From assembly GCA_050012475.1 (NCBI GenBank), contig JBEKHC010000039.1:1-64000 (forward strand): DNA of 64,000 nucleotides, written 5' to 3'. Origin of the DNA: Candidatus Velthaea sp. GTDB taxonomy: Bacteria > Vulcanimicrobiota > Vulcanimicrobiia > Vulcanimicrobiales > Vulcanimicrobiaceae. The notes below the pieces were generated by a model. It ran no database searches and was not told where the DNA came from. It saw only the letters and a list, made by a program, of their open reading frames with translations. A program made the position numbers and the translations under genes. Below, one piece after another: positions 12,607 to 50,268 of the stretch (position 1 is its first letter; every line of letters starts with the position of its first letter).

Positions 12607-12681
12607 ATGAAAGGTCAGATGATGTGCGCGGTGGTTTGTTGTTGCCCAACTGGGCTCCGGCGACGTTTCGCATTGGACTGA
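12607..12681 (+). CDS. Cys-rich attenuator leader peptide L1 (ssuACB)
   Basis: MKGQMMCAVVCCCPTGLRRRFALD*; TTGACA 12569-12574, TACGGT 12593-12598, ATG 8 nt later. Confidence 0.8.
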   Translation: MKGQMMCAVVCCCPTGLRRRFALD

Positions 12682-12704
12682 CGCCGAGCGTCAACCCGCC
12701 TGTG

Positions 12705-12740
12705 AAGCCCTCGCCCCAGCCGGCCGAGGGCTTTTTTCTT
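12705..12740 (+). terminator. Attenuator terminator L1
   Basis: AAGCCCTCG...CGAGGGCTT followed by TTTTCTT. Confidence 0.8.
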
Positions 12741-12777
12741 TCCCGTCTTTTCGTATGTAATCAAGGAGAATCTCCCA

Positions 12778-13761
12778 ATGAGCCTGGATCGACGCTCCTT
12801 CATCATCGCGGGCGCCGCGGGAACAGCGACGGTGCTGGTGCCGCGAATCGCGCGCGCTGCCGCTCCCGACCGCATCGCGCTCGACTATGCGTATTACAAT
12901 CCCGTCAGCCTCATCCTCAAGCAGAGCGGGTGGCTCGAAGGCGAGCTTGCGAAGCGCAAGACCGGCGTCGATTGGGTACTTTCGCTGGGCTCGAACAAGG
13001 CAAATCAGTTTTTGCAAGCCGGCGCCGTCCAATTCGCCTCGACGGCAGGCAGCGCCGCGTTTCTCGCGCGAGTCAACGGCACGCCGCTGCATACCGTCTT
13101 CCTTTACTCGCAGCCCGAATGGACGGCATTGGTCGTAAGCAAGGACAGCCCCATGGCAACGGTGCGCGATCTCAAGGGCAAAAGAGTCGCTGCGACGCGC
13201 GGAACGGACCCGTGGTTCTTCCTTTTGCGCTCGCTGCGCGAATTCGGGCTGGATGTCGCCGACATTCAACTCGTCGATTTACAACATCCCGATGGCCGCA
13301 TCGCACTCGAACGCGGCCAGGTCGATGCTTGGGCCGGACTCGACCCGCACATGGCGGCCTCGCAACTCGACGCCGGCTCCAAGCTGATCTACCGCAACGT
13401 CGCGTTCAACACGTTCGGTGCGCTCAACGTGCGCGAAGACTTCCTGCAAGCGCAGCCCGGGATCGTCGATGTCGTCCTGCGGGGTTACGACCGCGCTCGC
13501 CAGGCCGCACTCGCGAATCCCGATGCGACCGCGCAAACACTCGCGACCGCATCGAACGTCGAACCGCAAGTCGCGCAACTGGTGATTCGCGAGCGCACGA
13601 AATTCCCTGATCCGACACCCGGCCGCGCATTCGCCGATGCCATCGCCGGCGTCGTCCCGATCGTGCGCGCGGAGCATCTGACCGCCGCCGGCGCCGACCT
13701 CGACGGCGCGGCCGCGACGCTCGCCGAAGCTCGCTACGCCCAGGCAGCCGCAAAAGCGTGA
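12778..13761 (+). CDS. ssuA: Aliphatic sulfonate ABC substrate-binding protein (Tat signal)
   Basis: DRRSF signal, DYAYYNPVSL, GSNKA, DLKGKRVAATRGTDP, DAWAGLDP. Confidence 0.85.
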   Translation: MSLDRRSFIIAGAAGTATVLVPRIARAAAPDRIALDYAYYNPVSLILKQSGWLEGELAKRKTGVDWVLSLGSNKANQFLQAGAVQFASTAGSAAFLARVNGTPLHTVFLYSQPEWTALVVSKDSPMATVRDLKGKRVAATRGTDPWFFLLRSLREFGLDVADIQLVDLQHPDGRIALERGQVDAWAGLDPHMAASQLDAGSKLIYRNVAFNTFGALNVREDFLQAQPGIVDVVLRGYDRARQAALANPDATAQTLATASNVEPQVAQLVIRERTKFPDPTPGRAFADAIAGVVPIVRAEHLTAAGADLDGAAATLAEARYAQAAAKA

Positions 13762-14501
13762 AGTTCGTCGTCCCGATCGCGCTGGTGGTCGCGTGGTTCG
13801 CCGCGACTTCGACGGGCGCGATCAAATCGTACCAACTCGCCTCACCGCAAGCCGTGCTCGTCGAGCTGAACGATCTGGCCTCGCGCGGTCTGCTCTGGAC
13901 GGACCTCGGCGCGAGCCTCGAGCGCGTCGCGACCGGCTTCGCGCTTGCCGCGATGCTCGCGATCGTCCTCGGATCGCTGGTCGGCGCTTCAAGGATCGCG
14001 GAAAAGCTTCTCGATCCGACTTTACAGGCAATACGTTCGGTGCCGTCGCTCGCTTGGGTGCCGTTGTTGCTGTTGTGGCTTGGAATCGGAGAGACGGCGA
14101 AGATTGCGCTGGTCGCAATCGGTGCGTTCTTCCCGATATACGTTGCGCTGGCATCGGCAATCCGCAACGTCGATCGAAAGCTGGTCGAAGTCGCGCGCGT
14201 GCTCGGCGTGCGCGGGTTGCCGTTCATCGCGCGCGTGCTTCTGCCGGCGGCGCTGCCGCAACTGCTGGTCGGCTTGCGGATCGGCTTGACGCAAGCGTGG
14301 CTTTTTCTCGTCGCCGCGGAATTACTCGGCGCCTCGCGCGGTCTGGGATTTTTGCTCACTGACGGCCAGCAAATTGCGCGCACGGATGAGATTCTCGTCG
14401 CGATCCTTGCTTTTGCGATCTGCGGCAAACTCTCGGAGTCCGCAATGCGATTGCTCGAGCGGCGTCTGGTGGGCTGGACCGATACGGTGGTCGCACGTTG
14501 A
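13758..14501 (+). CDS. ssuC: Sulfonate ABC permease
   Basis: SVPSLAWVPL, EAA-like loop, LVAAELLGASRGLG. Confidence 0.85.
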   Translation: MKFVVPIALVVAWFAATSTGAIKSYQLASPQAVLVELNDLASRGLLWTDLGASLERVATGFALAAMLAIVLGSLVGASRIAEKLLDPTLQAIRSVPSLAWVPLLLLWLGIGETAKIALVAIGAFFPIYVALASAIRNVDRKLVEVARVLGVRGLPFIARVLLPAALPQLLVGLRIGLTQAWLFLVAAELLGASRGLGFLLTDGQQIARTDEILVAILAFAICGKLSESAMRLLERRLVGWTDTVVAR

Positions 14502-15169
14502 ACGCGATTACGATTCGCGGCTTAGTGAAGCGCTACGGCGCGCATATCATTTTCGACGGCCTCGATCTCAACGTCGCGCACGGCGAACGGCTGGCCGTGC
14601 TCGGGGCCAGCGGGTGCGGAAAGTCAACGCTTTTGCGCTGTATCGCGGGCCTCGAATCGTGGGAGGGTGGTGAGATCAGCGTCGCCGGCGAGATCGGCTA
14701 CGTTTTCCAGGAGCCCCGGCTGTTCGGTTGGCTCGACGTGGAGCGTAACGTCGCATTCGCGGCCCGGAATGCCGAAGAGAAAGCGCGCGTACCGGAGGTG
14801 CTGGCCCTCGTCGGTTTGACCTCCGCACGGTCCAAGCTGCCCAAGCACCTTTCCGGCGGGATGGCGCAGCGAGCGGCTCTTGCTCGCGCGCTGATCCGCA
14901 AGCCCGAGATATTGCTCTTCGACGAGCCCTTGGCGGCGCTCGACGCGCTCACGCGGCTCGAACTGCGGGCTTCGTTGCGCGAAATCCTGATCCAAGCGCG
15001 CGCTTCTGCCGTGTGGGTAACGCACGACGTCGACGATGCCCTGAGCCTCGCGACCCGCACGATCGTGCTCCAGCGGTCCTCCAATTACGTGCTGGCGGTC
15101 GAACCGGCGCTCGGCGTCGACGTTGGAGTCCGGCGAGCCTTGCTCGCTGCGCTGGGCGTTAGCGCCTAA
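14498..15169 (+). CDS. ssuB: Sulfonate ABC ATP-binding protein
   Basis: GASGCGKST, FQEPRL, LSGGMAQR, DEPLAALD. Confidence 0.85.
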   Translation: MNAITIRGLVKRYGAHIIFDGLDLNVAHGERLAVLGASGCGKSTLLRCIAGLESWEGGEISVAGEIGYVFQEPRLFGWLDVERNVAFAARNAEEKARVPEVLALVGLTSARSKLPKHLSGGMAQRAALARALIRKPEILLFDEPLAALDALTRLELRASLREILIQARASAVWVTHDVDDALSLATRTIVLQRSSNYVLAVEPALGVDVGVRRALLAALGVSA

Positions 15170-15397
15170 CGCGCAAGCACGCGTCCGGCACGACGTCGAC
15201 AGTCGAAGCCGGGAAGCATCATGTCGAACGGAGTGCTCGACGTCGCAACAAGTTTGTTTGTATCCGCGATCGTCGCTGGCGCGACGCTCGCGCTTTCCTC
15301 GAGACGCAAGTGGCGACGCGGCGCAACGAGTGGTGGTCAATCGACTTCGTTGACGACACGTTGTCGATGGACTACCGGTGATGATGAAAAGCCACAA

Positions 15398-15697
15398 CGC
15401 GGTGAGTTTGCTAGTGACAAGATGCTCAAATGGCCCAGCGATCATAACGTCGCGCTGCACTTCATCGATCCCGGCCGTCCTATGCATAATGCAAACGTGG
15501 AGTTTTTTTGGGGACGGCTAAGAGATGAGTTTTTGAACGAACACACCTTTCCGAAAATCTTCTACGACCGCAAGGCGATTGAAGAATGGCGGCGAGATTA
15601 TAACCACCATCGACCTCAGAGCATATTCGATGACTTGACGTCGAGTGCATTCTTGGAGGATCATTTCCGTATCAACCCACCGGAACAAGTGGCCTGA
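15398..15697 (+). mobile_element. Degenerate IS3-family transposase remnant (3' part of integrase core)
   Basis: GEFAS...HFIDPGRPMHNANVEFFWGRLRDEFLNEH...EEWRRDYNHHRPQS; 5' part missing. Confidence 0.75.
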
Positions 15698-15713
15698 GCT
15701 TTGGGGTTGTCTC

Positions 15714-15971: not shown

Positions 15972-16209
15972 GCGTCTTCTCAAGGCCGTCTTGCGCATGA
16001 CGTCCGTCGCTCAGGATGATGGAGAAAACTGACCATCGATCGCGAGGATTTCATGGCAACAACAGCATCAAAGGCGCGTGCGCTGCATCGCTCCTGGCCG
16101 CCGGCGGAATAGCGGCGAATCGTTGAACTGACGCTGCGCGACCATCGCTCGGCCGCCGGGCGGAAGTCCGACCGGAATCACGCGAGGCTTGCTCGAAAAG
16201 GAGAGCCAC

Positions 16210-19692: not shown

Positions 19693-19779
19693 GCGCGTCC
19701 AGTCGGACCGTTCCATGCCGCGGCGGTTCGAGCGAGGCGGTATTTGACACGCCTTAGCCGTGAATGGTATAAGCAACTC

Positions 19780-19851
19780 ATGCGTTTAATGGGGCTGTCC
19801 GCTGGCTGGTGTACGAGCTGCGCACGACAGGTTGACAGCGATCGCTTCTAG
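19780..19851 (+). CDS. Cys-containing attenuator leader peptide L2 (cbs)
   Basis: MRLMGLSAGWCTSCARQVDSDRF*; TTGACA 19744-19749, TATAAG 19768-19773, ATG 6 nt later. Confidence 0.7.
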   Translation: MRLMGLSAGWCTSCARQVDSDRF

Positions 19852-19885
19852 TCCGGCGTGGCGGACCCGACGGGTCCGTGTTCCC

Positions 19886-19922
19886 AGAAAGCCTCTCGCT
19901 GCGCCGAGAGGCTTTCTGTTTT
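19886..19922 (+). terminator. Attenuator terminator L2
   Basis: Perfect 13-bp stem AGAAAGCCTCTCG/CGAGAGGCTTTCT then GTTTT. Confidence 0.8.
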
Positions 19923-20059
19923 CTACAGTTGGGAGTTACCAGCGTGCCGCTTCAATCGATCACGAGCCGAACGCTTCAGGAGAAGCGCCTACGATCGGCA
20001 CGGCTTGTACAACGCTCAGCGCGGTCGGCATTTCGCCGGCTCGAAGGCGCGCAATATCA

Positions 20060-22152: not shown

Positions 22153-22242
22153 GGTTTTTCGTTCCTTGGTGAAAAGTGAAAGAGATGAAAATCTTCGATT
22201 CTCGCTTGACGACCGCCGGAGTCCTCCGCTACACTGACCACG

Positions 22243-22332
22243 ATGTTGGTTAGCAGTCGATCGATAGCTGCGAGTTGTCCGCCTTGTCACGATTCTTCGT
22301 TGACCGGCTTTGAAGTGTTCTCGATCGCTTAA
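22243..22332 (+). CDS. Cys-containing attenuator leader peptide L3 (sfnG-1)
   Basis: MLVSSRSIAASCPPCHDSSLTGFEVFSIA*; TTGACG 22206-22211, TACACT 22230-22235, ATG 7 nt later. Confidence 0.7.
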   Translation: MLVSSRSIAASCPPCHDSSLTGFEVFSIA

Positions 22333-22357
22333 TTTTCGAACGAAGCGACCAACAGAC

Positions 22358-22388
22358 GCCTTTCGCCGGCCGGTGGGAGGCTTTTTTA
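22358..22388 (+). terminator. Attenuator terminator L3
   Basis: GCCTTTCGCC/GGTGGGAGGC stem with GU pairs then T6. Confidence 0.75.
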
Positions 22389-22429
22389 TTTGCAGTCCGG
22401 GCCATCTGCCCGAGTGGAATGGAATATTG

Positions 22430-26705: not shown

Positions 26706-26748
26706 AAAAAAAGCGAAAACGAGCCGCTCTTGAGCGACTCGTGTTTCG
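26706..26748 (-). terminator. Attenuator terminator L4
   Basis: Minus strand CGAAACACGAGTCGCTC-AA-GAGCGGCTCGTTTTCG then C and T7. Confidence 0.75.
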
Positions 26749-26778
26749 GGAAACTATCGACCTTCGGAGATCGCTACG

Positions 26779-26892
26779 TCACGGGCGTGAAGACGCCTCC
26801 GACGACGTGCGAGTCGAGCGACAGATCCCGAACGCAACGCAACAACAGTTTGCGGCGGAGGCGTGGCGTTGAACGGCGAGTCTGCTTTTCAT
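26779..26892 (-). CDS. Cys-rich attenuator leader peptide L4 (sfnB-msuE-sfnG)
   Basis: MKSRLAVQRHASAANCCCVAFGICRSTRTSSEASSRP*; minus TTGACA 26953-26948, TAGTGT 26930-26925; GGGGA just before ATG. Confidence 0.75.
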   Translation of the reverse strand: MKSRLAVQRHASAANCCCVAFGICRSTRTSSEASSRP

Positions 26893-27091
26893 ATCCCCGA
26901 CAGCAAGCAACGAAAGTTGATGAAACACTAAATGCTGCAGACGTGGATGTCAACCCCATTGACCGAAGTGTGCAGCTACAGCTGTTCGCGGCATGTCGCA
27001 TCAGATGCCCGCCGGCGAAATTTACTTTCGGCTGCCTGTGATGGCCGGGCGCTTGACGGCGGCTGCGCCGCTCGCCTACAATGCGCCCAGC

Positions 27092-27187
27092 ATGTTTGCA
27101 CGTTCCATCTCCAGTTCGCACGCTTGCCCTGCTTGTTGTTGTCGGGAGTCTTTCGCTCCGCGGTGCAGGTGCGTCGTTTTCGCGTAG
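27092..27187 (+). CDS. Cys-rich attenuator leader peptide L5 (Liv-type ABC operon)
   Basis: MFARSISSSHACPACCCRESFAPRCRCVVFA*; TTGACG 27053-27058, TACAAT 27077-27082. Confidence 0.8.
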   Translation: MFARSISSSHACPACCCRESFAPRCRCVVFA

Positions 27188-27205
27188 TCTCGTAAGAGCT
27201 GCGTT

Positions 27206-27246
27206 GAGCGCCTCTCGCCGTGAGCCGAGGGGCGCTTTTCTTTTTT
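27206..27246 (+). terminator. Attenuator terminator L5
   Basis: GAGCGCCTCTCG/CGAGGGGCGCTT then TTCTTTTTT. Confidence 0.8.
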
Positions 27247-32182: not shown

Positions 32183-32305
32183 ACTCCGGTTCGATAGCTC
32201 TTGCGCGGCATTCGGATCGGCGTCCGATCTTCATCCCGGCGTTGAAGATTTGTCGCCTGACATTTGCTGCTGGACAACCGTGCCGACGTCACGTATAGTA
32301 GACGG

Positions 32306-32386
32306 ATGTTACGGATTGCCGTCTCCAACCTGCAATTGAATTCGACCCAATGGTGTCGGGTCCAGGCGTGGTTCATCATGCGCTGA
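32306..32386 (+). CDS. Single-Cys attenuator leader peptide L6 (sbp-xsc-HOT)
   Basis: MLRIAVSNLQLNSTQWCRVQAWFIMR*; TGGACA 32271-32276, TATAGT 32294-32299, ATG 6 nt later. Confidence 0.6.
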   Translation: MLRIAVSNLQLNSTQWCRVQAWFIMR

Positions 32387-32440
32387 CGTGCAGTCCGCGC
32401 GGACTTTCGAGCCGCGCTGCCAACAAATCTCTCGCTGATG

Positions 32441-32471
32441 ATCCCCGCGCCAGTATGGTGCGGGGATTTTT
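32441..32471 (+). terminator. Attenuator terminator L6
   Basis: ATCCCCGCGCCA/TGGTGCGGGGAT then TTTT. Confidence 0.75.
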
Positions 32472-32533
32472 CATTTTCGGGCCCCTCCCTGATTCCGGCT
32501 TGCGTCCCTGATGTGATACGAAACACGGAGCAT

Positions 32534-36668: not shown

Positions 36669-36726
36669 CGCAGCCTGCCGGACGGTGACAGTTGACATCG
36701 GGGACGACGGGATGCTAACCTGGCCC

Positions 36727-36804
36727 ATGGTCTTGTGCCTCCATCTTGCCCCGTGTCGTTGTCGTGCTTGGGTGTCGGTACGGAAGAGTGTTGTGCGCGG
36801 ATAG
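36727..36804 (+). CDS. Cys-rich attenuator leader peptide L7 (tauC pair)
   Basis: MVLCLHLAPCRCRAWVSVRKSVVRG*; TTGACA 36692-36697, TAACCT 36716-36721, ATG 5 nt later. Confidence 0.75.
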   Translation: MVLCLHLAPCRCRAWVSVRKSVVRG

Positions 36805-36829
36805 TTTCTGCGTTTTCTCCCTGCTGCGT

Positions 36830-36860
36830 AACCCTCTGCCAAGTCCGGCGGGGGGTTTTT
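36830..36860 (+). terminator. Attenuator terminator L7
   Basis: AACCCTCTGCC/GGCGGGGGGTT then TTT. Confidence 0.75.
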
Positions 36861-36889
36861 CCTTTCGCAGGTCCTGAAAGGCAGTCGTA

Positions 36890-38502: not shown

Positions 38503-38537
38503 TTGACATGGCGTCCAACCGAGTGCTAATCTGGCTC

Positions 38538-38618
38538 ATGTACTCGCGCCCATGTCTCTGCCGGTGCTGCTGTTGCCTTTCGTTTCCGCGAACCCGGGAG
38601 AGTTTTGTGCGCACGTAA
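38538..38618 (+). CDS. Poly-Cys attenuator leader peptide L8 (tauAB)
   Basis: MYSRPCLCRCCCCLSFPRTRESFVRT*; TTGACA 38503-38508, TAATCT 38527-38532, ATG 5 nt later. Confidence 0.85.
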   Translation: MYSRPCLCRCCCCLSFPRTRESFVRT

Positions 38619-38645
38619 TTTTCAACGATTCATCTTCGTTGCGTG

Positions 38646-38677
38646 AACCCTCTGCCGAGTTCGGCGGAGGGTTTTTT
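38646..38677 (+). terminator. Attenuator terminator L8
   Basis: AACCCTCTGCCG/CGGCGGAGGGTT then TTTT. Confidence 0.85.
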
Positions 38678-38729
38678 GTTTCGCCGTTTTGTGAAGTTCA
38701 CACTTGAACGTCACGCTGAAAGGAAACTC

Positions 38730-40586: not shown

Positions 40587-40587
40587 G

Positions 40588-42291
40588 CTACACCCCGATC
40601 GCCATGCTTTGCATCGACTGGGCCGGCGGAAATGCCATCGCAGCGACAAAGACCTTGGTAAACCCTGGATCGGTCGCGAGCTCGATCGACTCGACCGCAC
40701 GGGTTACGGCGAGCAGCGCGCCGCGGGCATCCGCGTTGACCAGCAGCGCTTCGGCGCCCGTGCGCGCGGTGTTGCCGACAAACGTGACTCTGCCTTCAAG
40801 TTGGGGCGGAAACAGACCAATGTCGATGAGGCTGCGCGTCGTGAGGTGGTAGCCGAACGAGCCCGCGACCAGCACCCGGTCCAGATCCGCAGGCACGAGT
40901 CCGTTATGTGCGAGCATCGTATCGATGCCGGCCCGGACGGCTGCTTTTGCCAGTTGCACTTGCCGGATATCGCCTTGGCTGAGATACACGTCGCCGGACA
41001 AATGAAAAACCGTTTTTCCGTCGCGCGGGCGCAAGCGATCGCGTAACGCCGGCGACAGCTGCGTCACCTTGCGCGTGAACCGCCCCGAGCTTTCGACGAC
41101 GCCGGTAACGACCATCGCGGCGAGCGCTTCGATCAAGCCGCTGCCGCAAATCCCGACGGCATCCGCACCGTCGATGGTCGCCACCCGGATGTCGTCGCCG
41201 TCGACTGCAACGCGTTCCACGGCGCCGCGCGCGGCACGCATACCGCAGGCGATGTTCATGCCCTCAAAGGCCGGCCCCGCAGCGGTCGATGTCGCTTGCA
41301 GCCGGCCGTCGCGCGCCAATACCATCTCGCCGTTGGTGCCGATGTCGACGAATAGCGTCACGCCGCCGGCGTTCGGCAGATCGGTCGAGAGCACGCCGGC
41401 GGCGATATCCGCGCCCACGAATCCCGAAATAAGGGGTGGAAAATAGATCTCGGCGCACGCGGCGACACGCAAACCCAGGGACCCGGCGGCGCGCGACTCA
41501 TCGCCCGCGAGCGCCGGCGTGTACGGAAAACGTCCGAGCGGTTCGGGGCTGACGTTGGCGGCAAGGTGCATCATGCACGTATTTCCGGCAACGACCACTT
41601 CGTAGATGCGCCGGCGCGGAATGCGGGCTTCCGCGGCGAGCAATCCGATCATGCGGTCGATCTCGGCCATCAGCTCGTCGTGCAACAGCGCCAAACCGTC
41701 CGCTTGCGATGCAATCTGCACGCGCGACAATACGTCCTGGGCGTGGGCGACCTGTGGATTGAGCGCGGCAACGGAACCGACGCGCGCTCCAGTCCCCAGA
41801 TCGAGTAAAGAGGCAACGAGCGTCGTCGTTCCGATGTCGACTGCGACCCCGTAGAGGCGGGTCGTCGTGTCGCCGTTTTCTTCGGCCAGCTGCCGTTCAC
41901 CCGAACTCACAATGGTGCACCGGCGCTCGTCATCGTAGCTTTTTCGAATGGCCGGGCGCACCGGCAGATCCAGCCGAAGACCGTCTTCGAGGATTCGCAG
42001 GCCGCGCTCGCCCGAACCCGGCAAGGTAACGTCCAGATCCCCCTCGACGAGCGTACTGCACAAGAGCACGCCGCCTTCCGCGACTTGCTCGCTCGAAAGC
42101 CCGCGGGTCGAAACGATGCGCGCTCGCGTCTGCCCTACCGCGTCCAGACGCACGCGGCACTTGCCGCAGGTGCCGACGCCGTTGCACGGTGCTTCCAAGC
42201 GGACGCGAGCCAGTCGCGCGGCGTCGAGCAGCGAGCTGCCGACGGGAACCTCCGCGCTCGCACCGGTGGGGAGAAACGTGACGATCGGCAT
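40588..42291 (-). CDS. ASKHA-family reductive activator of corrinoid proteins with N-terminal 2Fe-2S domain
   Basis: CNGVGTCGKC...C, DIGTTT, DIGTNGE, AAGPAFEG, GICGSG, QLAKAA. Confidence 0.9.
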   Translation of the reverse strand: MPIVTFLPTGASAEVPVGSSLLDAARLARVRLEAPCNGVGTCGKCRVRLDAVGQTRARIVSTRGLSSEQVAEGGVLLCSTLVEGDLDVTLPGSGERGLRILEDGLRLDLPVRPAIRKSYDDERRCTIVSSGERQLAEENGDTTTRLYGVAVDIGTTTLVASLLDLGTGARVGSVAALNPQVAHAQDVLSRVQIASQADGLALLHDELMAEIDRMIGLLAAEARIPRRRIYEVVVAGNTCMMHLAANVSPEPLGRFPYTPALAGDESRAAGSLGLRVAACAEIYFPPLISGFVGADIAAGVLSTDLPNAGGVTLFVDIGTNGEMVLARDGRLQATSTAAGPAFEGMNIACGMRAARGAVERVAVDGDDIRVATIDGADAVGICGSGLIEALAAMVVTGVVESSGRFTRKVTQLSPALRDRLRPRDGKTVFHLSGDVYLSQGDIRQVQLAKAAVRAGIDTMLAHNGLVPADLDRVLVAGSFGYHLTTRSLIDIGLFPPQLEGRVTFVGNTARTGAEALLVNADARGALLAVTRAVESIELATDPGFTKVFVAAMAFPPAQSMQSMAIGV

Positions 42292-42294
42292 TGG

Positions 42295-43329
42295 TCAGGC
42301 CCGGTGCCCGGTCTTCACCGCGCCGGTCAGGGCTCGAATATTGTCGAGACCCGTCGATGTGCTGAGTCCGCAGGCCGGGGCGATAATGTCGACACCATCA
42401 TGCACGAGCCGCTCGGCGCTGCGCTGGACCTTGTTCGCGTCAGCGAATTCCAGCAGCGCGGTACTGAGGTTTCCCATCGTCGTGATTTGCGGATAGTCTG
42501 CTTTGAGCCGCACCAGGCTGACTTTCGCGTCGACGCTGATCGCATCGGCGTGCAGATCGGCGAGGTAGTGGCGACTGCGGCTCATATCACCGCAAATATG
42601 AACGATGACGGGCTTGCCCGCCGCATGCACCGCATCGCACAGCAGGTTGAGGTAACGCACCGCAAACGAGCTGAAAATCGCCGGCCCCAAGATCTCGCCG
42701 GTCGCCGTAGGATCGCCGATCGCGATCACGTCGGCGCCGTTGCGAGCAACTTCCTGCGCGTAAGCGACGAGCAGCCGGGTGATGTAATCGAGCACGCGAT
42801 GCGCGTCGCGCGGTTTGGTGCGCAATTCCTTGAGAAAGCTGAGCGGGTCGACGACCGAAGCAGCCGTGCTGATCGGCCCGGAAAGCGTCGCAATCACCGG
42901 CACGTCGGGGTTGCGCGTTTTGAGCTGATAAGCGGCTTGAATGACCGTCCCGATGCGCCCGCTGCGCACGAGTTGCTCAACGTCGTGAATCTCCACGTCG
43001 CTCGACGAAGCATAGGCCTCCGCCGCGATTTTCGGCTCGCACGAAAGCGAGCCCGAGTCGATGCGGCTGCCGAGCACCTCCGGCTCGACGGTCATGCAGA
43101 ACGGAACCCCGAGATTTTCGAATCCCGTCTTCGCGCGCACGCGTTCGGCAAGTTTGGTCATGCTCTCCGATGAGTAGTGCGCTTGCGGCAGTTTGGGCGA
43201 GTCATCCTCGTCCATCACGCCGACGACCGCCGCGTTGAGCATGCCACCGGTGCAGATGACGGGAGGCCGGTCGACTTGCTCGTTGGCGAGCACGCGCACC
43301 AGGCGTTCGCGCGGAGCAAGCTCAAGCAC
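42295..43329 (-). CDS. UroD-fold methyltransferase (MtaA/CmuA family)
   Basis: PFCMTVE, DPTATGEILG, HICG, APACG. Confidence 0.85.
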   Translation of the reverse strand: MLELAPRERLVRVLANEQVDRPPVICTGGMLNAAVVGVMDEDDSPKLPQAHYSSESMTKLAERVRAKTGFENLGVPFCMTVEPEVLGSRIDSGSLSCEPKIAAEAYASSSDVEIHDVEQLVRSGRIGTVIQAAYQLKTRNPDVPVIATLSGPISTAASVVDPLSFLKELRTKPRDAHRVLDYITRLLVAYAQEVARNGADVIAIGDPTATGEILGPAIFSSFAVRYLNLLCDAVHAAGKPVIVHICGDMSRSRHYLADLHADAISVDAKVSLVRLKADYPQITTMGNLSTALLEFADANKVQRSAERLVHDGVDIIAPACGLSTSTGLDNIRALTGAVKTGHRA

Positions 43330-44386
43330 GAGCGGTTCTCTCCGGCGCGAAAACCGCCGGCAGACCGGTCACGGCAGCGGTCAGTGCGGCGATGTTGGCC
43401 AGGCTGGTGGCGCTTGCCAAACCGCAAGCCGGCGAGACAACGTCGACGCCGCCGCGCACAAGACGGGCACCGACGTTTGCAATTTGGCCAGGCTCTCCCT
43501 GATGCAACAGAAACGTGCTGACGTTGCCTACCACGGCCAACTGCGGAAAGGCTTGGGCGAAGTACTGCAGCGACACCGCGGCATCGGGAATGAAACCATC
43601 GCAGCGCAACGTGCGAAGCTGCGCATCGACGCGGTCGAGGTGACCGCACATGTGCACGAGCACGCGCGCCCCGGTCTGCGCAACCGCGTCGATGAGCCGC
43701 TGCAAATGCGGCAGAACGCTGCGCTCGAAGACCGCCGGACCGGCGAGTGCGGGAGTGACCGTATCTTCGTGAATGACGATGACGTCGGCACCGGCCGCGA
43801 CCAGCTCGCGCGCAAAACCGATCTCGAAGTCCGTGACGTGCTCGACGAGCGAGCGCACATCATCGGGACTTTTGCGCAGCTCGCGAAAGAACGCATCCGG
43901 GCGCACGGCCGCAGCCGCGACGCTGACGGGCCCGATTAGATTCCCGATGATCGGTAAATCTTCCGCGGTCTCGGTCAACCGGCGCACCGCCGCCACCGAG
44001 ATCCCGATGCGCCCGCGCTGCAAACGCTCGTCCACGGGGACGCGCGGCACGTCCGCACACCGCTCGTAGGGTTCGCGCACGACCCGTGCTTCCGTGGCCT
44101 CGTCACCGAGATCGACGATCGCGCCGAATGCTTCCGCCTCGACCGTCGTGCAGAGCGGAACCCCGACCGATTCGAACCCGGTGAGACGCGCAGCCGCCAG
44201 CGCCAGACCGGCCATCGCCGCCGCGTCCGAATGCGCGTCGGGCAACCGGTAGCCCGAACGAATCACGACTTCCGCCGGGACGCCGCTCATGCTGCCGCCG
44301 CTGCAAATGACCGGGGGACGATCGACGGGGAGGCGCGCGAGCGCCTGCAGCAAACGGGCGCGACGATCCAATGCGGCGCTCACCAT
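43322..44386 (-). CDS. UroD-fold methyltransferase (MtaA/CmuA family)
   Basis: PLCTTVEAEAFG, HMCG, SPACG. Confidence 0.85.
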   Translation of the reverse strand: MVSAALDRRARLLQALARLPVDRPPVICSGGSMSGVPAEVVIRSGYRLPDAHSDAAAMAGLALAAARLTGFESVGVPLCTTVEAEAFGAIVDLGDEATEARVVREPYERCADVPRVPVDERLQRGRIGISVAAVRRLTETAEDLPIIGNLIGPVSVAAAAVRPDAFFRELRKSPDDVRSLVEHVTDFEIGFARELVAAGADVIVIHEDTVTPALAGPAVFERSVLPHLQRLIDAVAQTGARVLVHMCGHLDRVDAQLRTLRCDGFIPDAAVSLQYFAQAFPQLAVVGNVSTFLLHQGEPGQIANVGARLVRGGVDVVSPACGLASATSLANIAALTAAVTGLPAVFAPERTARA

Positions 44387-44391
44387 TGCAA

Positions 44392-45474
44392 CTAATAGTG
44401 CCCGTAGAGCCGGGCGGCCTTGACCATGGTCGCGGCGCTGAGCAGGTTGCCGTTGGGCGGAAACTCGCAGCCGCTCGAGAGGATGAACCCGCCCTCGGCA
44501 ACGCGGAAGGTTTCGATTTGCTGACGGCATTCTTCGAGCAGATCCGCTTGGCTGAACTCGTGACCGGCCTTCGCGGGGTCGATGACGCCGATGGTCACGA
44601 CCTTCTTCCCCCAGTTCTGCGCGTGCGCCGTGAGGTCGGCCGAGCCGTAGGCCGGATACGCGTGCGAGATCGCAATCGGTTCGATGTGCTCGATTACCGC
44701 GTCGAAATACACGCCGTTACCGCAATTGTGCACGATCACGGGTACGCCGGCGGCGCGAACTGCGTCAGCGATCGGATGCATGAACACGCCCTCGAAATCG
44801 ACCCAGGTCTGTTTCTTGAGAATCGACGCCGAGGAATACAGCGGATCGAGGACGATGGCGTGCGCTCCCGCCTCCACTTGGGCGACAGCGTACTCGACGA
44901 GCACGCCGGTAATCGTGTTCACCGCTTCGAGCACGCGATCGGGATGGCGGATCAAATCTTTAAACAATTCGGCATGACCGCGAATCTGCGACAACACGCC
45001 CAACGGGCCATACACGAAACCCATCACCGCGACGTCCTTGCCGCGCGCTTCAGCGAGACCGCGCACGATCTCGATGACGCCGCTGGTGCGGCGCGATTTG
45101 CGCGGATCGAAAGCGCGCACTTTCCCGTACTCCTGCGCCGTTGCAATAAACGGATTGTCGAAGTTCGGGAGCGCCGTGCTCCAATCGGGGAAGAGCACTT
45201 CTTGGCCGAAGTCTTCGGCTTCGACCGACAGGTCGACCAGGGTGAGCCAGCCGTCGAACCCGATCAGTTCTTGCGCCGCGAGCAGGCTGGCCGTCGCGGC
45301 CTTCGCATCCTGCGACCAGCGGCCGTACGAGATGCCCAAGACGCGGCCCGAGGCGCCGCAGACGAGCGGCGCCGCCGGTACCCGGTCGGGCTTTTTGTAT
45401 TGCAGCGCCAGTCCGACCCGTTCGAGCGACGTCAGTTGGTCGCGCTGGGCCGTGGCGGTTCCGTTGGTGCTCAT
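44392..45474 (-). CDS. UroD-fold methyltransferase (MtaA/CmuA family)
   Basis: PDRVP, DLSVEAEDFG, HNCG, FILSSGCE. Confidence 0.85.
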   Translation of the reverse strand: MSTNGTATAQRDQLTSLERVGLALQYKKPDRVPAAPLVCGASGRVLGISYGRWSQDAKAATASLLAAQELIGFDGWLTLVDLSVEAEDFGQEVLFPDWSTALPNFDNPFIATAQEYGKVRAFDPRKSRRTSGVIEIVRGLAEARGKDVAVMGFVYGPLGVLSQIRGHAELFKDLIRHPDRVLEAVNTITGVLVEYAVAQVEAGAHAIVLDPLYSSASILKKQTWVDFEGVFMHPIADAVRAAGVPVIVHNCGNGVYFDAVIEHIEPIAISHAYPAYGSADLTAHAQNWGKKVVTIGVIDPAKAGHEFSQADLLEECRQQIETFRVAEGGFILSSGCEFPPNGNLLSAATMVKAARLYGHY

Positions 45475-46133
45475 GCCGCGTGCACGACTTCAGTCAGGCG
45501 TTTTGCCAGTTGCACGGCGAGCGTCGCCTTCGCCGCGTAGCCGTCGGCTCCGATGCGGTCGGCGAATTGCTGCGAGAGCGGAGCGCCGCCGACGATCACT
45601 TTGAAGCGCTCGCGGATGTCCTCGGCTCGGAGTATTCGGACGACTTGCGCCATCTGATCCATCGTCGTCGTCATGAGCGTCGAAAGTGCGATCACGTCGG
45701 CATTCACTTCCAACGCGCGATCGACGAACGTTCGGGCCGGCACGTCGCGGCCCAGATCGAAGACCTCGAAACCGGCAACTTCGAGCATGATCCGCACCAA
45801 ATTCTTGCCGATGTCGTGCGTGTCGCCGGCAACCACGCCGATGACGACCCGGCGACCGCGCACGGACGATTCCTGACGAATATGGGGCTGCAGGATCGCG
45901 AGGCCGGCATACATCGCATCGGCCGCAATCAAGAGTTCGGGAACGAAGTACTCCTCTTCGTCAAAGAGTTTTCCCGCCGCATTCATGCCGGCAATCAACC
46001 CATGTTCGACCGCCGCCCAAGCGTCGAGGCCCTGCGTGACTACCTCCTGCGACAGCTCGGCCGTCAACGGCTCGTCAAGCTCGAGAACCGCGTTGGCTAG
46101 AGCGGCATGCAGCTCATCAGGATCTTCGGACAT
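45471..46133 (-). CDS. Corrinoid (B12-binding) methyl-carrier protein
   Basis: YFVPELL, GDTHDIGKN, DLGRDVP, STLMTTT, VGGAP. Confidence 0.9.
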   Translation of the reverse strand: MSEDPDELHAALANAVLELDEPLTAELSQEVVTQGLDAWAAVEHGLIAGMNAAGKLFDEEEYFVPELLIAADAMYAGLAILQPHIRQESSVRGRRVVIGVVAGDTHDIGKNLVRIMLEVAGFEVFDLGRDVPARTFVDRALEVNADVIALSTLMTTTMDQMAQVVRILRAEDIRERFKVIVGGAPLSQQFADRIGADGYAAKATLAVQLAKRLTEVVHAA

Positions 46134-46595: not shown

Positions 46596-46636
46596 GAAAA
46601 ATGACGAAGCCCCTCACCGAACCGGCGAAGGGCTTC
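46596..46636 (-). terminator. Attenuator terminator L9
   Basis: Minus GAAGCCCTTCGCCG/CGGTGAGGGGCTTC then GTCATTTTTC (imperfect U tract). Confidence 0.6.
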
Positions 46637-46674
46637 TTCGCAGAATAGCGCGGTGCGCTAACCCGCGGTGAAAC

Positions 46675-46734
46675 TCACCGGCCCATTCGAAGGGGCCGGG
46701 TACACCACTGCGCTAACGCACGAGAGAGAAGCAT
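46675..46734 (-). CDS. Single-Cys attenuator leader peptide L9 (corrinoid operon)
   Basis: MLLSRALAQWCTRPLRMGR*; minus TTGACA 46773-46768, TACTAT 46749-46744, ATG 9 nt later. Confidence 0.6.
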   Translation of the reverse strand: MLLSRALAQWCTRPLRMGR

Positions 46735-47048
46735 TGCTTAATGATAGTAGCTGTTTGACGGTTCATGTGTCAAGCAGATGAATGCAGTTCTCAAACACAT
46801 GTGCTAAAGCAATTGCTATGCTTTATTGGAATTAAATCGTTTGCTCCGCATGTTGCCGGTTTGCTCGCTGCGCGCTTTCGACAGGGATGCCGCGCTGCAA
46901 CGAGCATTCGACGCTAACTTAGGGTCAACTATAATTTAACGTAGGGCCGACAAAATGCAAAATGCCGGCACCCATTATGCAATCGCTGCTTAACTACTTC
47001 ACGACGGAAGCGAACTTCCGGACGCGACGTACGAGCAGCTCCGCCTCT

Positions 47049-47708: not shown

Positions 47709-48783
47709 AGCCGAGCACCTCCACGGAAGAAACGCGGTCTTCGACGAACGCGCGGAAGCGCGAAGCCACGTCCGGCCCAGTATTTTTCACGCTCACGAAC
47801 AGGGTTCCGATCGGCTCGCCCTGCACGTGCTCGACTCCGCCCTCGAGCAGCGTCGCCGCGCCAAAGACTTGCGAAAGGTTGGCAAGGAGCGGCGAGCGCG
47901 CCTGATCCCCTTGCACGTCGAGGCGCACGACGAGAGCATCGCCCGTCACTTCGTGCAGCCGTGCAGCGATAAACTCCGGCAGCTCCGGCCGCAACGCGCC
48001 GAGCAGCCTGCGCGTGCCCGGCGCCTCGGGCGCGGCGAACACCGCAGACACGGGGCCCGTCTCGATGACCCGGCTATTTTCGAGCACGACGACCCGGTCG
48101 GCGATCGCACGGATCACGCTCATCTCATGGGTAATCAGCACGATCGTGAGCCGCAAGCGGCGGTTGATCTCGCGCAGCAGTTCGAGAATCGAAAGCGTCG
48201 TCTCCGGATCGAGCGCCGACGTGCCTTCGTCGGAGAGCAACAGCAGCGGTTCGGCGGCGAGCGCACGCGCGATGCCCACGCGCTGTTTCTGGCCGCCGGA
48301 AAGCTGCGCCGGATAGGCGTCGCCGCGCCCGGAGAGATCGGCGAGGTCGAGCAGTTCGTTCACGCGCCGGCGACGCTGGGCAGCAGCGATTCCGGCGATC
48401 TTCAGCGGCAAGGCAATGTTCTGCGCCACCGTCTTCGATGAGAGCAGATTGAAGTGCTGAAAAATCATTCCGATCCGGCGTCGCATCGGCTGCAGTTCGC
48501 TCTCCGAGAGGCGGGCGATATCCACGCCCTCGATCTCGACCATCCCGGTGTCGGGACGCTCGAGACCGTTGAGGCAGCGAATGAGCGTCGTCTTTCCCGC
48601 GCCGCTGCGGCCGATGATCCCGAGGATCTCGCCCGGCTGCACCGCGAGCGAGATCGCATCGAGCGCAACGTATTCGCCGAATCGCTTACCGACGTTGCTC
48701 AGCCGCAGCAGCGCACGCGAATCGGTTTGGTCGTCGACGGGCTGATCCCGGATAGCGAACGGCGACGCAGAAACCTGGCTCAC
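47689..48783 (-). CDS. metN: Methionine-type ABC ATP-binding protein with C-terminal NIL-like domain
   Basis: GRSGAGKTT, FQHFNLL, LSGGQKQRVGIARAL, TSALDPETT. Confidence 0.9.
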   Translation of the reverse strand: MSQVSASPFAIRDQPVDDQTDSRALLRLSNVGKRFGEYVALDAISLAVQPGEILGIIGRSGAGKTTLIRCLNGLERPDTGMVEIEGVDIARLSESELQPMRRRIGMIFQHFNLLSSKTVAQNIALPLKIAGIAAAQRRRRVNELLDLADLSGRGDAYPAQLSGGQKQRVGIARALAAEPLLLLSDEGTSALDPETTLSILELLREINRRLRLTIVLITHEMSVIRAIADRVVVLENSRVIETGPVSAVFAAPEAPGTRRLLGALRPELPEFIAARLHEVTGDALVVRLDVQGDQARSPLLANLSQVFGAATLLEGGVEHVQGEPIGTLFVSVKNTGPDVASRFRAFVEDRVSSVEVLGYLNSDR

Positions 48784-49592
48784 CAGCCCGGAAGCGCCGT
48801 TCCGTGGTAGACCTTGACCAAGGCGCTCTTGATATCGTTGTTCTCGTACGACGCCACGAGCGTGCGCACCCAGGTTTCGTTCTCCTCACCCGTTTTCACC
48901 GCGATGAAGTTGCGGTACGGGTTGTCCTTGGCGGGCTCGGTCGCGATGCGGTCTTTCTGCGTGAGCTTCGACTTGGCGGCCCAGTCGGTGTTGACGACGG
49001 CGGCATCCACGTCGTCGATCGAGCGGCCCACGATGCCGGCGTCGAGTTCGCGCACGACGATGTTTTTCGGATTGCTGACGATATCGGTCTGCGTCGCCGT
49101 TATGCCGGAGCCTTCGCGCAGCTTGATCAGGCCGACGTCCTCGAGCAGCACCAGCGCGCGGCCTTCATTGCTTGGATCGTTCGGCACGCCGATCTTTGCG
49201 CCGGCCGGCAGATCGGCGACGCTGCGATGCTTGTGCGAATACAGTCCGATCGGCCAAATCGCCGTGTAACCGGCGATCGCGATATGATAGCCGCGCGTCT
49301 TGATCTGATTGTCGAGATACGGCTTGTGTTGGAATGCATTCGCATCCAGTTCGCCGTGTTCGAGTGCTTCATTGGGTTGCGTGTAGTCGTTGAACGTCAC
49401 GACCTTCACGTTGAGACCGCGCTTCTTGGCCTCTTGCACGACGAGGGCCCAGAGGTCCTCATCCTCACCGCTTTCGATGCCGACGCGGACGGGATTCGGG
49501 GCGCTGTCCGCGTGCGCGAGGAGCGGCAGCGAACCGCCGAACAGAACGCTGGCTGCGAGGACGGCGACAGCCCAGCGGCGATAAATCTTCAC
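48780..49592 (-). CDS. metQ: MetQ/NlpA-family substrate-binding protein
   Basis: FNDYTQPN, DANAFQHKPYL, PNDPSNEGRAL; AAGGAG before GTG 49592. Confidence 0.9.
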   Translation of the reverse strand: MKIYRRWAVAVLAASVLFGGSLPLLAHADSAPNPVRVGIESGEDEDLWALVVQEAKKRGLNVKVVTFNDYTQPNEALEHGELDANAFQHKPYLDNQIKTRGYHIAIAGYTAIWPIGLYSHKHRSVADLPAGAKIGVPNDPSNEGRALVLLEDVGLIKLREGSGITATQTDIVSNPKNIVVRELDAGIVGRSIDDVDAAVVNTDWAAKSKLTQKDRIATEPAKDNPYRNFIAVKTGEENETWVRTLVASYENNDIKSALVKVYHGTALPGW

Positions 49593-49638
49593 GACGAGAA
49601 AACTCCTTGCATGAGTGCGGGGTGAAATGACATGAAAT

Positions 49639-49668
49639 AAAAAAGCCCTCGACCGATCGGTAGAGGGC
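49639..49668 (-). terminator. Attenuator terminator L10
   Basis: Minus GCCCTCTACCG/CGGTCGAGGGC then T6. Confidence 0.8.
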
Positions 49669-49690
49669 AAAATCTTGCGCTCCCGCGTCT

Positions 49691-49768
49691 TTAGACGCGC
49701 GCAAACCTCTTCCGACCTATTATGGGCGCCGACGAACACCGACACATCGCGCTGGCGGAAGAACTCAT
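49691..49768 (-). CDS. Cys-containing attenuator leader peptide L10 (metQNI-1)
   Basis: MSSSASAMCRCSSAPIIGRKRFARV*; minus TTGACA 49804-49799, TAGCGT 49780-49775, ATG 6 nt later. Confidence 0.75.
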   Translation of the reverse strand: MSSSASAMCRCSSAPIIGRKRFARV

Positions 49769-50126
49769 GGCGCTACGCTACCATCCCGTTGCGCGGCGTG
49801 TCAACCATCGCCCACGCCAACGTTGCCTTTCCGCTCCAACTCGCCGGACCGCCGCGCAGCGAGATCGCAGCGCGCGGTGGTCTTTGCAGGCGCCACGTCA
49901 TTTCCGTGGGCGCAACATCGCGCTCGAATCCCAACCGCGCGAAATCGTGCGTAGCGACCAGGCCGCGCAGGACGAGCCTCCCATCGTTCGCGCGCTCAAG
50001 CGTGTCGGATTGACCGCGTTTGCGCGCCCGCGCGGGGACGGCCGAACGCTGTTCGAGATAAACGTTCGCCGGATGGGCGATCCGGCAGGCGGGTCCTCGC
50101 ACAGCCGCGTAAGTTGTCGCTCTGCA

Positions 50127-50207
50127 ATGTACCCATCCACTTTCTGTTGTGCTTGTCGGTGTTCGACTGCTCCATTGGGCACGCCGGTGAGGTATATGCG
50201 CGCTTAA
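50127..50207 (+). CDS. Cys-rich attenuator leader peptide L11 (FadL-DUF4395-cysK)
   Basis: MYPSTFCCACRCSTAPLGTPVRYMRA*; promoter not clearly seen. Confidence 0.75.
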   Translation: MYPSTFCCACRCSTAPLGTPVRYMRA

Positions 50208-50232
50208 GCGATCGTCGCAATTCAGCCCGTAC

Positions 50233-50268
50233 AAGCCCTCTACCGACCGTAGCGGGCTTTTTCTTTTT
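50233..50268 (+). terminator. Attenuator terminator L11
   Basis: AAGCCCTCTAC/GTAGCGGGCTT then TTTCTTTTT. Confidence 0.75.

Follow-up and report, generated by a model that had tools for sequence, protein, structure and literature searches.

The 64,000-nucleotide (nt) stretch of Candidatus Velthaea sp. analysed here (positions 1 to 64,000 of contig JBEKHC010000039.1, hereafter the window) has 62% G+C and, by the Pfam naming of its genes, is a sulfur-scavenging island. It carries 13 units of one design, each consisting of a promoter, a short open reading frame (sORF) with Cys codons, an intrinsic terminator and a sulfur operon. Modelling of these units makes it highly probable that each of them acts as a ribosome-read transcription attenuator that senses charged tRNA-Cys. 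The in silico basis comprises the parts and their positions, a complementarity above controls, recurrence in relatives and a codon bias. The units were located by a terminator scan, followed by reading 350 nt around each strong intergenic hairpin. The initial annotation had counted 11 of them (L1-L11), and two more lie beyond its end coordinate, at 55297 (-) and 55652 (+).

The proposed mechanism would combine a leaderless start, ribosome stalling, kinetic competition and a response to cysteine. A strong sigma-70-type promoter would start transcription on, or right beside, the AUG of a frame of 19-37 codons, in which Cys is mostly encoded by the rare UGU. With plentiful Cys-tRNA, the ribosome would reach the stop codon, cover the last leader codons and melt the hairpin that starts there; the terminator, which lies 20-55 nt further on, would then fold, and RNA polymerase would halt at the U-run. 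With scarce Cys-tRNA, the ribosome would stall on the Cys cluster and leave the leader 3' end, 13-32 nt further on, naked. Before the 3' arm is made, this naked end would zip with the 5' arm of the terminator and the flank upstream of that arm, enclosing an inner hairpin. Once this antiterminator has formed, the polymerase would read into the sulfur-acquisition operon.

Leaders, terminators and the pairing between them

The promoters of 11 of the 13 units share a TTGAC(A/G) box (TGGACA in unit F), a 17-18 nt spacer and a TAnnnT box. In 11 leaders the ATG lies 5-9 nt 3' of the -10 hexamer, which leaves no room for a ribosome-binding site, and this promoter spacing suggests a leaderless start for these 11. 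The sORFs are 19-37 codons long and contain one to six Cys codons each, with Cys present in all 13 and at least two Cys in 11. Cys makes up 12.5% of the residues in the 13 leaders, compared to 2.96% in background sORFs, and consecutive Cys codons occur in six leaders only (A, D, E, H, K and N). The codon TGT accounts for 27 of the 40 leader Cys codons, against 15.7% in the long open reading frames (ORFs) of this genome with high G+C at third codon positions (p=2.6e-13). A genome-wide scan for promoter, ATG, an ORF of 8-59 codons and terminator, in which Cys was not demanded, returned 14 units. All 14 contain Cys and 13 contain at least two, whereas among all background ATG sORFs the corresponding shares are 50.8% and 21.2%. 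In this genome, the design is specific to cysteine. Both this specificity and the TGT preference fit a stalling sensor.

The three leaders with only one or two Cys, namely B, F and I, have a Trp-Cys pair in common that is encoded TGGTGT (19807-19815, 32348-32356 and 46710-46702; GWCTSC, QWCRV and QWCTR, respectively). The Trp codon of this pair may add to stalling, or the hexamer may be structural.

Each of the 13 units has a GC-rich hairpin (-11.0 to -24.7 kcal/mol) located 20-55 nt past the stop codon and followed by a T-run. The downstream genes have their own AGGAG-type sites, 30-110 nt past the terminator. According to the initial annotation, leader 3' ends are complementary to the terminator 5' arms, and the pairings it quoted are real: all 14 oligonucleotides lie at or within their assigned places and form duplexes of 8-13 base pairs (-9.9 to -18.8 kcal/mol).

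To model the stalled state, folding was confined to the segment that starts 13 nt beyond the first base of the main cluster's final Cys codon and stops where the terminator loop ends, with the 3' arm still unmade. Unguided minimum-energy folding of this segment gave antiterminator 5' strands that overlap those of the initial annotation in seven of seven cases. In 12 of the 13 leaders, the minimum-energy structure is one long interrupted stem, in which the end of the leader ORF is paired to the 5' arm, loop and upstream flank of the terminator. Enclosed by the stem is a small hairpin, which starts on the stop codon or immediately behind it. Masking the ribosome footprint at the Cys cluster lets the long stem form, whereas masking it at the stop codon abolishes the stem.

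In these 12 leaders, 13-32 nt separate the first base of the stall codon from the start of the antiterminator 5' strand, which ends 12-14 nt before the stop codon in eight of them or at -2 to +8 in the other four. The footprint of a ribosome extends roughly 15-18 nt behind its A-site codon and 12 nt ahead of it. Given these start and end positions, the strand would be free under a stalled ribosome and mostly covered under a terminating one. The geometry from folding thus supports, in 12 of the 13 leaders, the earlier proposal that a ribosome stalled at the main Cys cluster frees this segment and one at the stop covers it. A 1:2 pause or anti-antiterminator hairpin was also looked for, and the Cys-codon segment pairs to the antiterminator strand only in C, H and M.

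The 13 units are given below with their sORFs, predicted antiterminator 5' strands, terminators and downstream genes; "gain" is the z-score of the energy-gain test against shuffles that is described in the next section, and "first pair" is the pairing quoted in the initial annotation.

Unit A (L1), 12569..12739, + strand: promoter TTGACA-18-TACGGT; sORF 12607-12681, MKGQMMCAVVCCCPTGLRRRFALD; antiterminator 5' strand 12659-12672 (first pair 12659-12672 with 12701-12715); inner hairpin from the stop codon; terminator 12707-12731, then a T-run; gain -4.7; downstream, NMT1/SsuA-type binding protein, permease and ATPase (12778-15169).
Unit B, 19744..19926, + strand: sORF 19780-19851, MRLMGLSAGWCTSCARQVDSDRF; antiterminator 5' strand 19833-19855; terminator 19885-19918 (-23.9 kcal/mol); gain -1.84; downstream, PALP+CBS enzyme of the cystathionine beta-synthase type.
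Unit C, 22206..22389, + strand: sORF 22243-22332, MLVSSRSIAASCPPCHDSSLTGFEVFSIA; antiterminator 5' strand 22304-22318; terminator 22358-22381; gain -0.95 (weak); downstream, luciferase-like monooxygenase.
Unit D, 26706..26953, - strand: promoter and a 34-nt 5' untranslated region; sORF 26892-26779, MKSRLAVQRHASAANCCCVAFGICRSTRTSSEASSRP; terminator 26740-26720; downstream, acyl-CoA-dehydrogenase-type enzyme, FMN reductase and monooxygenase.
Unit E (L5), 27053..27243, + strand: sORF 27092-27187, MFARSISSSHACPACCCRESFAPRCRCVVFA; antiterminator 5' strand 27159-27172 (first pair 27161-27172 with 27208-27220); terminator 27208-27235; gain -2.8; downstream, Liv-type ABC transporter.
Unit F (L6), 32271..32474, + strand: sORF 32306-32386, MLRIAVSNLQLNSTQWCRVQAWFIMR, one Cys; antiterminator 5' strand 32365-32378 (first pair 32365-32378 with 32436-32451); terminator 32442-32466; gain -1.1; downstream, sulfate-binding protein, thiamine-pyrophosphate (TPP)-enzyme genes and Fe-ADH.
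Unit G (L7), 36692..36863, + strand: sORF 36727-36804, MVLCLHLAPCRCRAWVSVRKSVVRG; antiterminator 5' strand 36777-36796 (first pair 36782-36796 with 36826-36840); terminator 36832-36855; downstream, two permeases.
Unit H, 38503..38679, + strand: sequence paralogue of unit G; sORF 38538-38618, MYSRPCLCRCCCCLSFPRTRESFVRT; antiterminator 5' strand 38591-38602; terminator 38648-38671; gain -2.4; downstream, NMT1-type binding protein and ATPase.
Unit I (L9), 46597..46773, - strand: sORF 46734-46675, MLLSRALAQWCTRPLRMGR, one Cys; antiterminator 5' strand 46683-46670 (first pair 46683-46674 with 46629-46620); terminator 46636-46606 (-24.7 kcal/mol); gain -2.85, with the top rank of all in the swap test; downstream, B12-binding protein, three URO-D-type methyltransferases and RACo (46133-40588).
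Unit J (L10), 49637..49804, - strand: sORF 49768-49691, MSSSASAMCRCSSAPIIGRKRFARV; antiterminator 5' strand 49717-49706 (first pair 49717-49706 with 49666-49655); terminator 49668-49645; gain -3.3; downstream, metQ/metN/metI-type genes.
Unit K (L11), 50127..50265, + strand: sORF 50127-50207, MYPSTFCCACRCSTAPLGTPVRYMRA, upstream of which a consensus promoter was looked for and none was seen; antiterminator 5' strand 50185-50192 (first pair 50185-50192 with 50237-50245); terminator 50235-50257; gain -0.4 (weak); downstream, FadL-type outer-membrane protein, DUF4395 and cysteine synthase (PALP).
Unit M (outside the span of the initial annotation), 55165..55333, - strand: sORF 55297-55235, MESMLCRRCRPGKLIASRLD; antiterminator 5' strand 55241-55229; terminator 55200-55173; gain 0.0; downstream, HTH_3 and cupin regulator.
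Unit N (outside the same span), 55616..55779, + strand: sORF 55652-55717, MNVASASSCCRCLGPSPGVAA; antiterminator 5' strand 55703-55713; terminator 55748-55771; gain -2.1, switch-segment test p=0.005; downstream, a second metN/metI/metQ set.

Complementarity against chance and across relatives

Pairings of this kind could be a by-product of composition, in which GCCCTCGCC-type arms find partners in any 60-80 nt at 62% G+C and the terminators simply end constitutive small-ORF transcripts. The strictest comparison agrees with such an explanation: set against 500 dinucleotide shuffles, the best duplex of the bare 5' arm (8-14 nt) with the region from the first Cys codon to the terminator shows no significant excess (Fisher p=0.105, mean z -0.50), and p<0.05 is reached by two of the 13 leaders only. 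Two fuller tests, which also take in the flank and the inner hairpin, point the other way. Adding the 5' arm and loop to the stalled-state transcript yields an energy gain that exceeds 200 shuffles each (Fisher p=5.5e-6), with z<-1.8 in 7 of the 13 leaders; the gain is strong in A, E, I, J, H, N and B (z -1.8 to -4.7). The switch-segment test, which takes the expected count of arm bases paired to the segment covered by a terminating ribosome, places 12 of the 13 leaders above the shuffle mean (Fisher p=9e-5). The refuting outcome named in the initial annotation, namely pairings no stronger than in dinucleotide-shuffled leaders, is seen for the arm-only duplex, but not in the two tests that take in more of the transcript.

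Moreover, own terminators outdo foreign ones. When terminators were swapped among the 13 window leaders, the own terminator gained -8.5 kcal/mol compared to -6.5+-0.7 kcal/mol for foreign ones (p=0.0023). In a set of 32 leaders, from which five close orthologues had been removed beforehand, the values were -11.4 and -8.0+-0.5 kcal/mol, and none of 20000 permutations was as low (p=5e-5). The gain of about -6.5 to -8 kcal/mol that foreign terminators achieve on the same leaders is itself a point for the composition explanation, as is the CCTCGCCG motif common to many terminators; that foreign terminators gain this much is explained by the CCTCGCCG-type arm common to many of them, the complement of which stands at the end of many leaders.

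For relatives, 150 other genomes of the order were searched with the pattern TTGAC-N19-TANNNT-N4-9-ATG-N9-60-TGYTGY. It matched 56 of 145 genomes from the family of the window and none of five from a sister family, with 100 matches compared to 17 for the pattern read backwards. These family tallies include genomes flagged as unpublished (one among the pattern-matching genomes), and the sequence-level claims rest on none of these. After removal of out-of-frame matches and of an ArsR-type gene start, 24 replicate leaders were kept, the antiterminator being ignored in the choice; 23 come from genomes of the same family and one (locus L154) from contig C61 of this genome. Their energy gain has a mean z of -2.65, with z<-1.64 in 20 of the 24.

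Among the removed matches, those that begin with MSMQRCC were dropped as leaders, being the apparently leaderless start of an ArsR-type regulator gene of at least 100 residues. This gene, with an MSMQRCC or MSIQRCC start, is apparently leaderless, with its -10 box 6-7 nt before the ATG and its promoter inside a TCGAT...ATCGA inverted repeat. The start was caught in 17 genomes, and a gene of at least 100 codons was confirmed at loci L117, L118 and L120-L123. In this genome (G000) it lies at C115:11711-11767 (-).

A search of metagenome contigs with the binding protein of unit A gave 80 loci, about 26 of which have a Met/Cys-rich sORF and a terminator as called by script. In 24 such orthologues, the gain has a mean z of -2.38, with z<-1.64 in 14; the three orthologues near zero, all with a ...CR* ending, had been assigned a poor stall site. 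The earlier statement that pairing persists although leader sequences differ thus holds in the swap test and in two further leader sets, and each of three sets of leaders, picked separately, gains more than its dinucleotide shuffles.

Covariation, which the initial annotation had proposed as a check, was followed in 13 sequences, as a covariance model built from eight leaders of the unit-A family found five more. In an alignment that was fitted to the structure of the model and in which most pairs never vary, 94% of cells are paired, compared to 25-48% with the partners slid. Four of the 13 pairs changed on both sides, which was reached by none of 500 shuffles, and in the outer helix (leader end with terminator arm) G-C became A-U in four sequences. 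With the alignment fitted and mostly invariant, covariation support for the helix is modest. In L185 and L186, the closest unit-A orthologues, whose gene is 83-84% identical, divergence is found in the 5' half of the leader, whereas the helix-forming 3' half is identical to that of unit A bar one base. The compensatory changes and this conserved 3' part both speak against a by-product of composition, an origin that we consider very improbable.

The same conservation bears on a further possibility, namely that the sORFs encode functional Cys-rich peptides (metal-binding, redox-active or precursors of ribosomally synthesised and post-translationally modified peptides) and that their position reflects co-expression, not sensing. 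The products are Cys-rich, with 19-37 residues, and some C-terminal motifs recur, such as RRRF in A and KRF in J, also found on contig C18. However, no peptide sequence is conserved between units bar Cys and Met, and conservation among orthologues tracks the RNA helix, synonymous sites included, and not the peptide. A preference for rare codons and a terminator right behind each ORF would be unexpected for a product gene, and Pfam found no modifying enzymes adjacent. A peptide product as the reason for these ORFs is thus scarcely credible.

Three further searches for orthologous leaders gave little. At the DNA level, a search with unit A in 40 relatives returned only short matches, mostly coding, and no Cys leader at those loci. 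The closest homologues of metQ (Rhizobiales, 60-74% identity, 80 loci) have no Cys leader, and no orthologous leaders for J or K were found there. Upstream regions of cysK were recovered for 23 of 28 published loci and contain a leader in three only (G007, G092 and G083), too few to use this set for covariation.

Most other cysK upstream regions possess a conserved GAACRYACGTTCGA-type palindrome, 60-110 nt upstream of the gene (loci L158, L160, L163-L165, L171, L179, L181 and L182, and contig C20 of this genome), which is probably a transcription-factor site. From these sequences, the Cys leader and the palindrome seem to replace one another as modes of cysK control.

In the relatives, Met- and Cys-rich leaders precede metY and hom (homoserine dehydrogenase), and Cys-only leaders precede cysK, cysH and sulfite reductase; internal Met amounts to 8.7-11.4% in the two outside leader sets. 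Leaders that mix Met and Cys, such as MSAHARMMTMAMCC, MFTTTAMMCPMCCMQMH and MTSSMMMCCLSMCC, also precede an SsuA-type binding protein (relatives L138-L143, L147, L148 and L152; metagenome loci L185-L229). Their composition suggests that the mixed leaders may jointly sense both sulfur amino acids.

Energetics of the proposed switch and a translational alternative

In forced-structure folding, the penalty of the antiterminator relative to the terminator is much lower with the ribosome stalled than at the stop codon in A (3.8 vs 13.3 kcal/mol), E (4.8 vs 13.7), J (-0.1 vs 12.3), N (3.7 vs 8.0), K (7.1 vs 11.2) and I (9.4 vs 17.1). By this measure, A, E and J are the best switches.

Several observations weigh against attenuation by such a switch. 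At equilibrium, the terminator is favoured whatever the ribosome state except in stalled J, and so in 12 of the 13 stalled states (free-energy difference +3.7 to +16.3 kcal/mol), J being the only leader in which the stalled antiterminator equals the terminator in energy (-0.1 kcal/mol). Since the terminator wins at equilibrium, the switch would have to be kinetic, as in trp, with the antiterminator forming first. The penalty does not drop on stalling in G, M and D, which are not switches in silico, and the energy gain is weak in C, F and K and absent in M, G and D. Units G, K and M lie at or below the shuffle and swap averages. Individually, unit D has no antiterminator in the masked-folding model (0 pairs; gain z=+1.9), unit G has a pairing, yet its gain is not above shuffles (z=+1.2) and its rank in the swap test is low, and unit M is not switch-like when structures are forced in folding. 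F and I each have a single Cys codon, which makes unit F a weaker candidate. The arm-only duplexes reported above do not exceed shuffles. In the replication sets, the orthologues are related, so that combined p-values overstate, and the terminator of locus L148 was mis-called by the script. In addition, metatranscriptomes (two runs, 7% of words) gave exact contig matches at 51409-51778, 51959-52221, 53346-53660 and 54878-55131 only; these RNA contigs cross no leader or terminator, and no transcript start or end was seen in them.

Some of these points would also suit an alternative in which the mode of action of the Cys sORFs is the mycobacterial one, either translational attenuation or coupling through Rho/NusG, the terminator being merely leaky. 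A stalled ribosome would then alter access to the downstream ribosome-binding site or uncouple transcription. The dissected mycobacterial Cys leader, Ms5788A, is described in the available text as working via sequestration of the Shine-Dalgarno site (Canestrari 2020), and both the equilibrium preference for the terminator in 12 of 13 stalled states and the lack of an energetic switch in D, G and M are in line with this scheme. On the other hand, every unit places a GC-rich hairpin and U-run between the sORF and the operon, and the AGGAG-type sites of the downstream genes lie 30-110 nt beyond it. The complementarity to the 5' arm, moreover, beats both shuffles and foreign terminators and recurs in 48 further leaders. 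We therefore judge a purely translational or Rho-based mode of action improbable and favour transcription attenuation for the units.

Island content, tRNA-Cys and known systems

The genes behind the leaders fit the metabolism of the sensed amino acid, as by Pfam they include sulfonate, sulfate and methionine ABC transporters, SsuD/SsuE-type enzymes, CBS and CysK. Overall, the Pfam names in the window comprise sulfonate-type (NMT1), sulfate and two methionine (NlpA/NIL) ABC transporters, luciferase-like monooxygenases with FMN reductases, an SfnB-type acyl-CoA-dehydrogenase, a PALP+CBS enzyme, cysteine synthase, a Liv-type ABC transporter, a FadL-type porin, DUF4395 and a corrinoid methyltransferase cluster. 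This last cluster (40588-46133, -) stands behind the single-Cys leader I and encodes a B12-binding protein, three URO-D/MtaA-type methyltransferases and a RACo reductive activator, which suggests a sulfur source obtained by demethylation of a methylated sulfur compound.

A search of the window against Rfam at gathering score matched no family on the unit regions; the sole match is a fluoride riboswitch (RF01734, 5009-5072, +, 47.3 bits, E=5.6e-10). It precedes a cluster of NADH-dehydrogenase/Mrp-antiporter-like membrane subunits (5182-12416), the usual targets being crcB and eriC. Directly 3' of the unit-A transporter operon lies a truncated integrase-core (rve_3) ORF (15221-15697, +), a remnant that hints at mobility of parts of the island. 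The metQ gene at 48780-49592 is closest to Rhizobiales genes (60-74% identity). The genome is a 204-contig assembly with 5.3% contamination. The island is assigned to this lineage on the grounds that units of the same design also occur on contigs C18, C20 and C61 of this genome and in genomes of the same family, and that the main cysK of this genome (C20) is 73% identical to that of the family.

At contig C61:4849-5070 (locus L154/L265), this genome has a unit of promoter, putatively leaderless Cys sORF and terminator with a second, diverged tRNA-Cys(GCA) gene behind it; the distance from unit to gene, relatives included, is 14-60 nt. The observation is also listed at C39:65828-65900, 1.8 kb past the end of the window. 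The arrangement occurs at 7 of 15 published loci of relatives, in six genera (L266, L267, L268, L270, L273, L274 and L275), with no terminator called by the script at L268. A housekeeping tRNA-Cys copy, apparently unregulated and 93-100% identical to C49:32258-32331, is found in G003, G007, G092 and G083, the four checked showing both copies. The genes further downstream vary from genome to genome, so regulation seems to be aimed at the tRNA itself. A third tRNA-Cys stands at the far end of an operon led by a unit at C39:69792 (-). Our literature search brought up no earlier case of a tRNA gene under the control of a leader-peptide attenuator.

We tentatively propose that the whole sulfur-starvation response of this lineage may be run by ribosome stalling at rare UGU, with no dedicated transcription factor and with the sensor feeding back via tRNA-Cys, although we hold this broader scheme to be rather less than an even bet. 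It would extend over at least 19 transcription units in this genome, and units occur in at least 56 of the 145 sampled family genomes. If it is true, scarce charged tRNA-Cys would induce more tRNA-Cys. The full classical set of parts (leader, antiterminator and terminator) at 13 operons in 64 kb, recurring in a large family of uncultured soil and peat bacteria, offers many natural replicates with unrelated sequences. These would be useful for design rules of attenuators, such as stall-to-helix distance, the stop-codon hairpin and the choice of rare codons, and for the annotation of sulfur regulons in genomes without CysB- or CymR-type regulators. In addition, the units flag genes of unknown role as sulfur-responsive, including the corrinoid methyltransferase cluster, the FadL-type porin and DUF4395.

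The design resembles the classical leader-peptide transcription attenuators of amino-acid operons, namely trpL, hisL, leuL, thrL, ilv and pheL. They share a short leader ORF with codons for the end product, an intrinsic terminator before the first structural gene, an antiterminator 5' strand that is free on stalling and covered at the stop, and termination as the default. Compared to these, the units here would sense cysteine (plus methionine in some relatives) and are apparently leaderless: the AUG follows the -10 hexamer by 5-9 nt, and a Shine-Dalgarno site is absent. They also lack a clear 1:2 pause hairpin, the stop-codon hairpin becoming the tip of the antiterminator instead. Moreover, 13 operons in 64 kb are involved, and the targets are more often scavenging transporters and oxygenases than biosynthesis genes. 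To our knowledge, textbook leader-peptide transcription attenuation has not been demonstrated for cysteine, and the one tested system, that of mycobacteria, is translational. Literature searches by phrase on cysteine-rich leader peptides found no paper, and one on Eremiobacterota and leaderless found nothing related.

The polycysteine leaderless sORFs of mycobacteria form a "Cys ribulon" that acts translationally in Mycobacterium smegmatis, according to the available text of the report (Canestrari et al. 2020, 10.1101/834739), and is cited as translational in the accessible part of PMC13236596. As described there, the first cistron is a leaderless Cys-codon short ORF, a kind of start that promoter spacing predicts for 11 of the units here. 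Both systems have cysteine or sulfur targets, and in both, many loci share one signal and would thus form a regulon without a transcription factor. In the dissected mycobacterial case, the account available describes a duplex over the Shine-Dalgarno site and no intrinsic terminator. By contrast, all 13 units here have a terminator with the downstream ribosome-binding sites beyond it, and 12 of the 13 have a competing helix. They also belong to another lineage, and two consecutive Cys codons occur in only 6 of the 13 window leaders.

The uORFC-8-2 motif upstream of cysS, in Rhodobacteraceae relatives of the Rhodobacterales, is a predicted ribosome-mediated attenuator (Brewer et al. 2021, PMC8632094) and, in the portion of that paper available, is similar in having tandem Cys codons in an upstream ORF (uORF) and a terminator stem with a U-run. 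It is presented there as a single conserved RNA family that precedes a single gene, cysS, and whose first stem contains the Cys codons, whereas the units here comprise many unrelated sequences before transporters and enzymes, have apparently leaderless starts and matched no Rfam family. In Deinococcus deserti, leaderless leader peptides were predicted, including one of 10 residues, two of them Cys, that precedes cysS (de Groot et al. 2014, PMC4007540). In the available description, transcription starts at the leader AUG, as is predicted for most of our units, and the peptide is likewise rich in the cognate residue, with transcription attenuation as the proposal; its single Cys case lies before a tRNA synthetase gene, and that description contains no antiterminator analysis. 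Candidate Cys leader peptides were also listed for cys operons of Mycobacterium and Propionibacterium acnes and for cbs of Bifidobacterium longum (Seliverstov et al. 2005, PMC1262725). They are likewise runs of Cys codons in short ORFs upstream of cysteine genes; in the accessible text of that study no terminator hairpins were found and Rho-dependent termination was proposed, whereas terminators and predicted antiterminators are explicit here.

Altogether, the closest relatives of these units are the mycobacterial Cys ribulon and the Rhodobacterales cysS uORF. The mechanism is classical; its specificity and its deployment are not those of the textbook.

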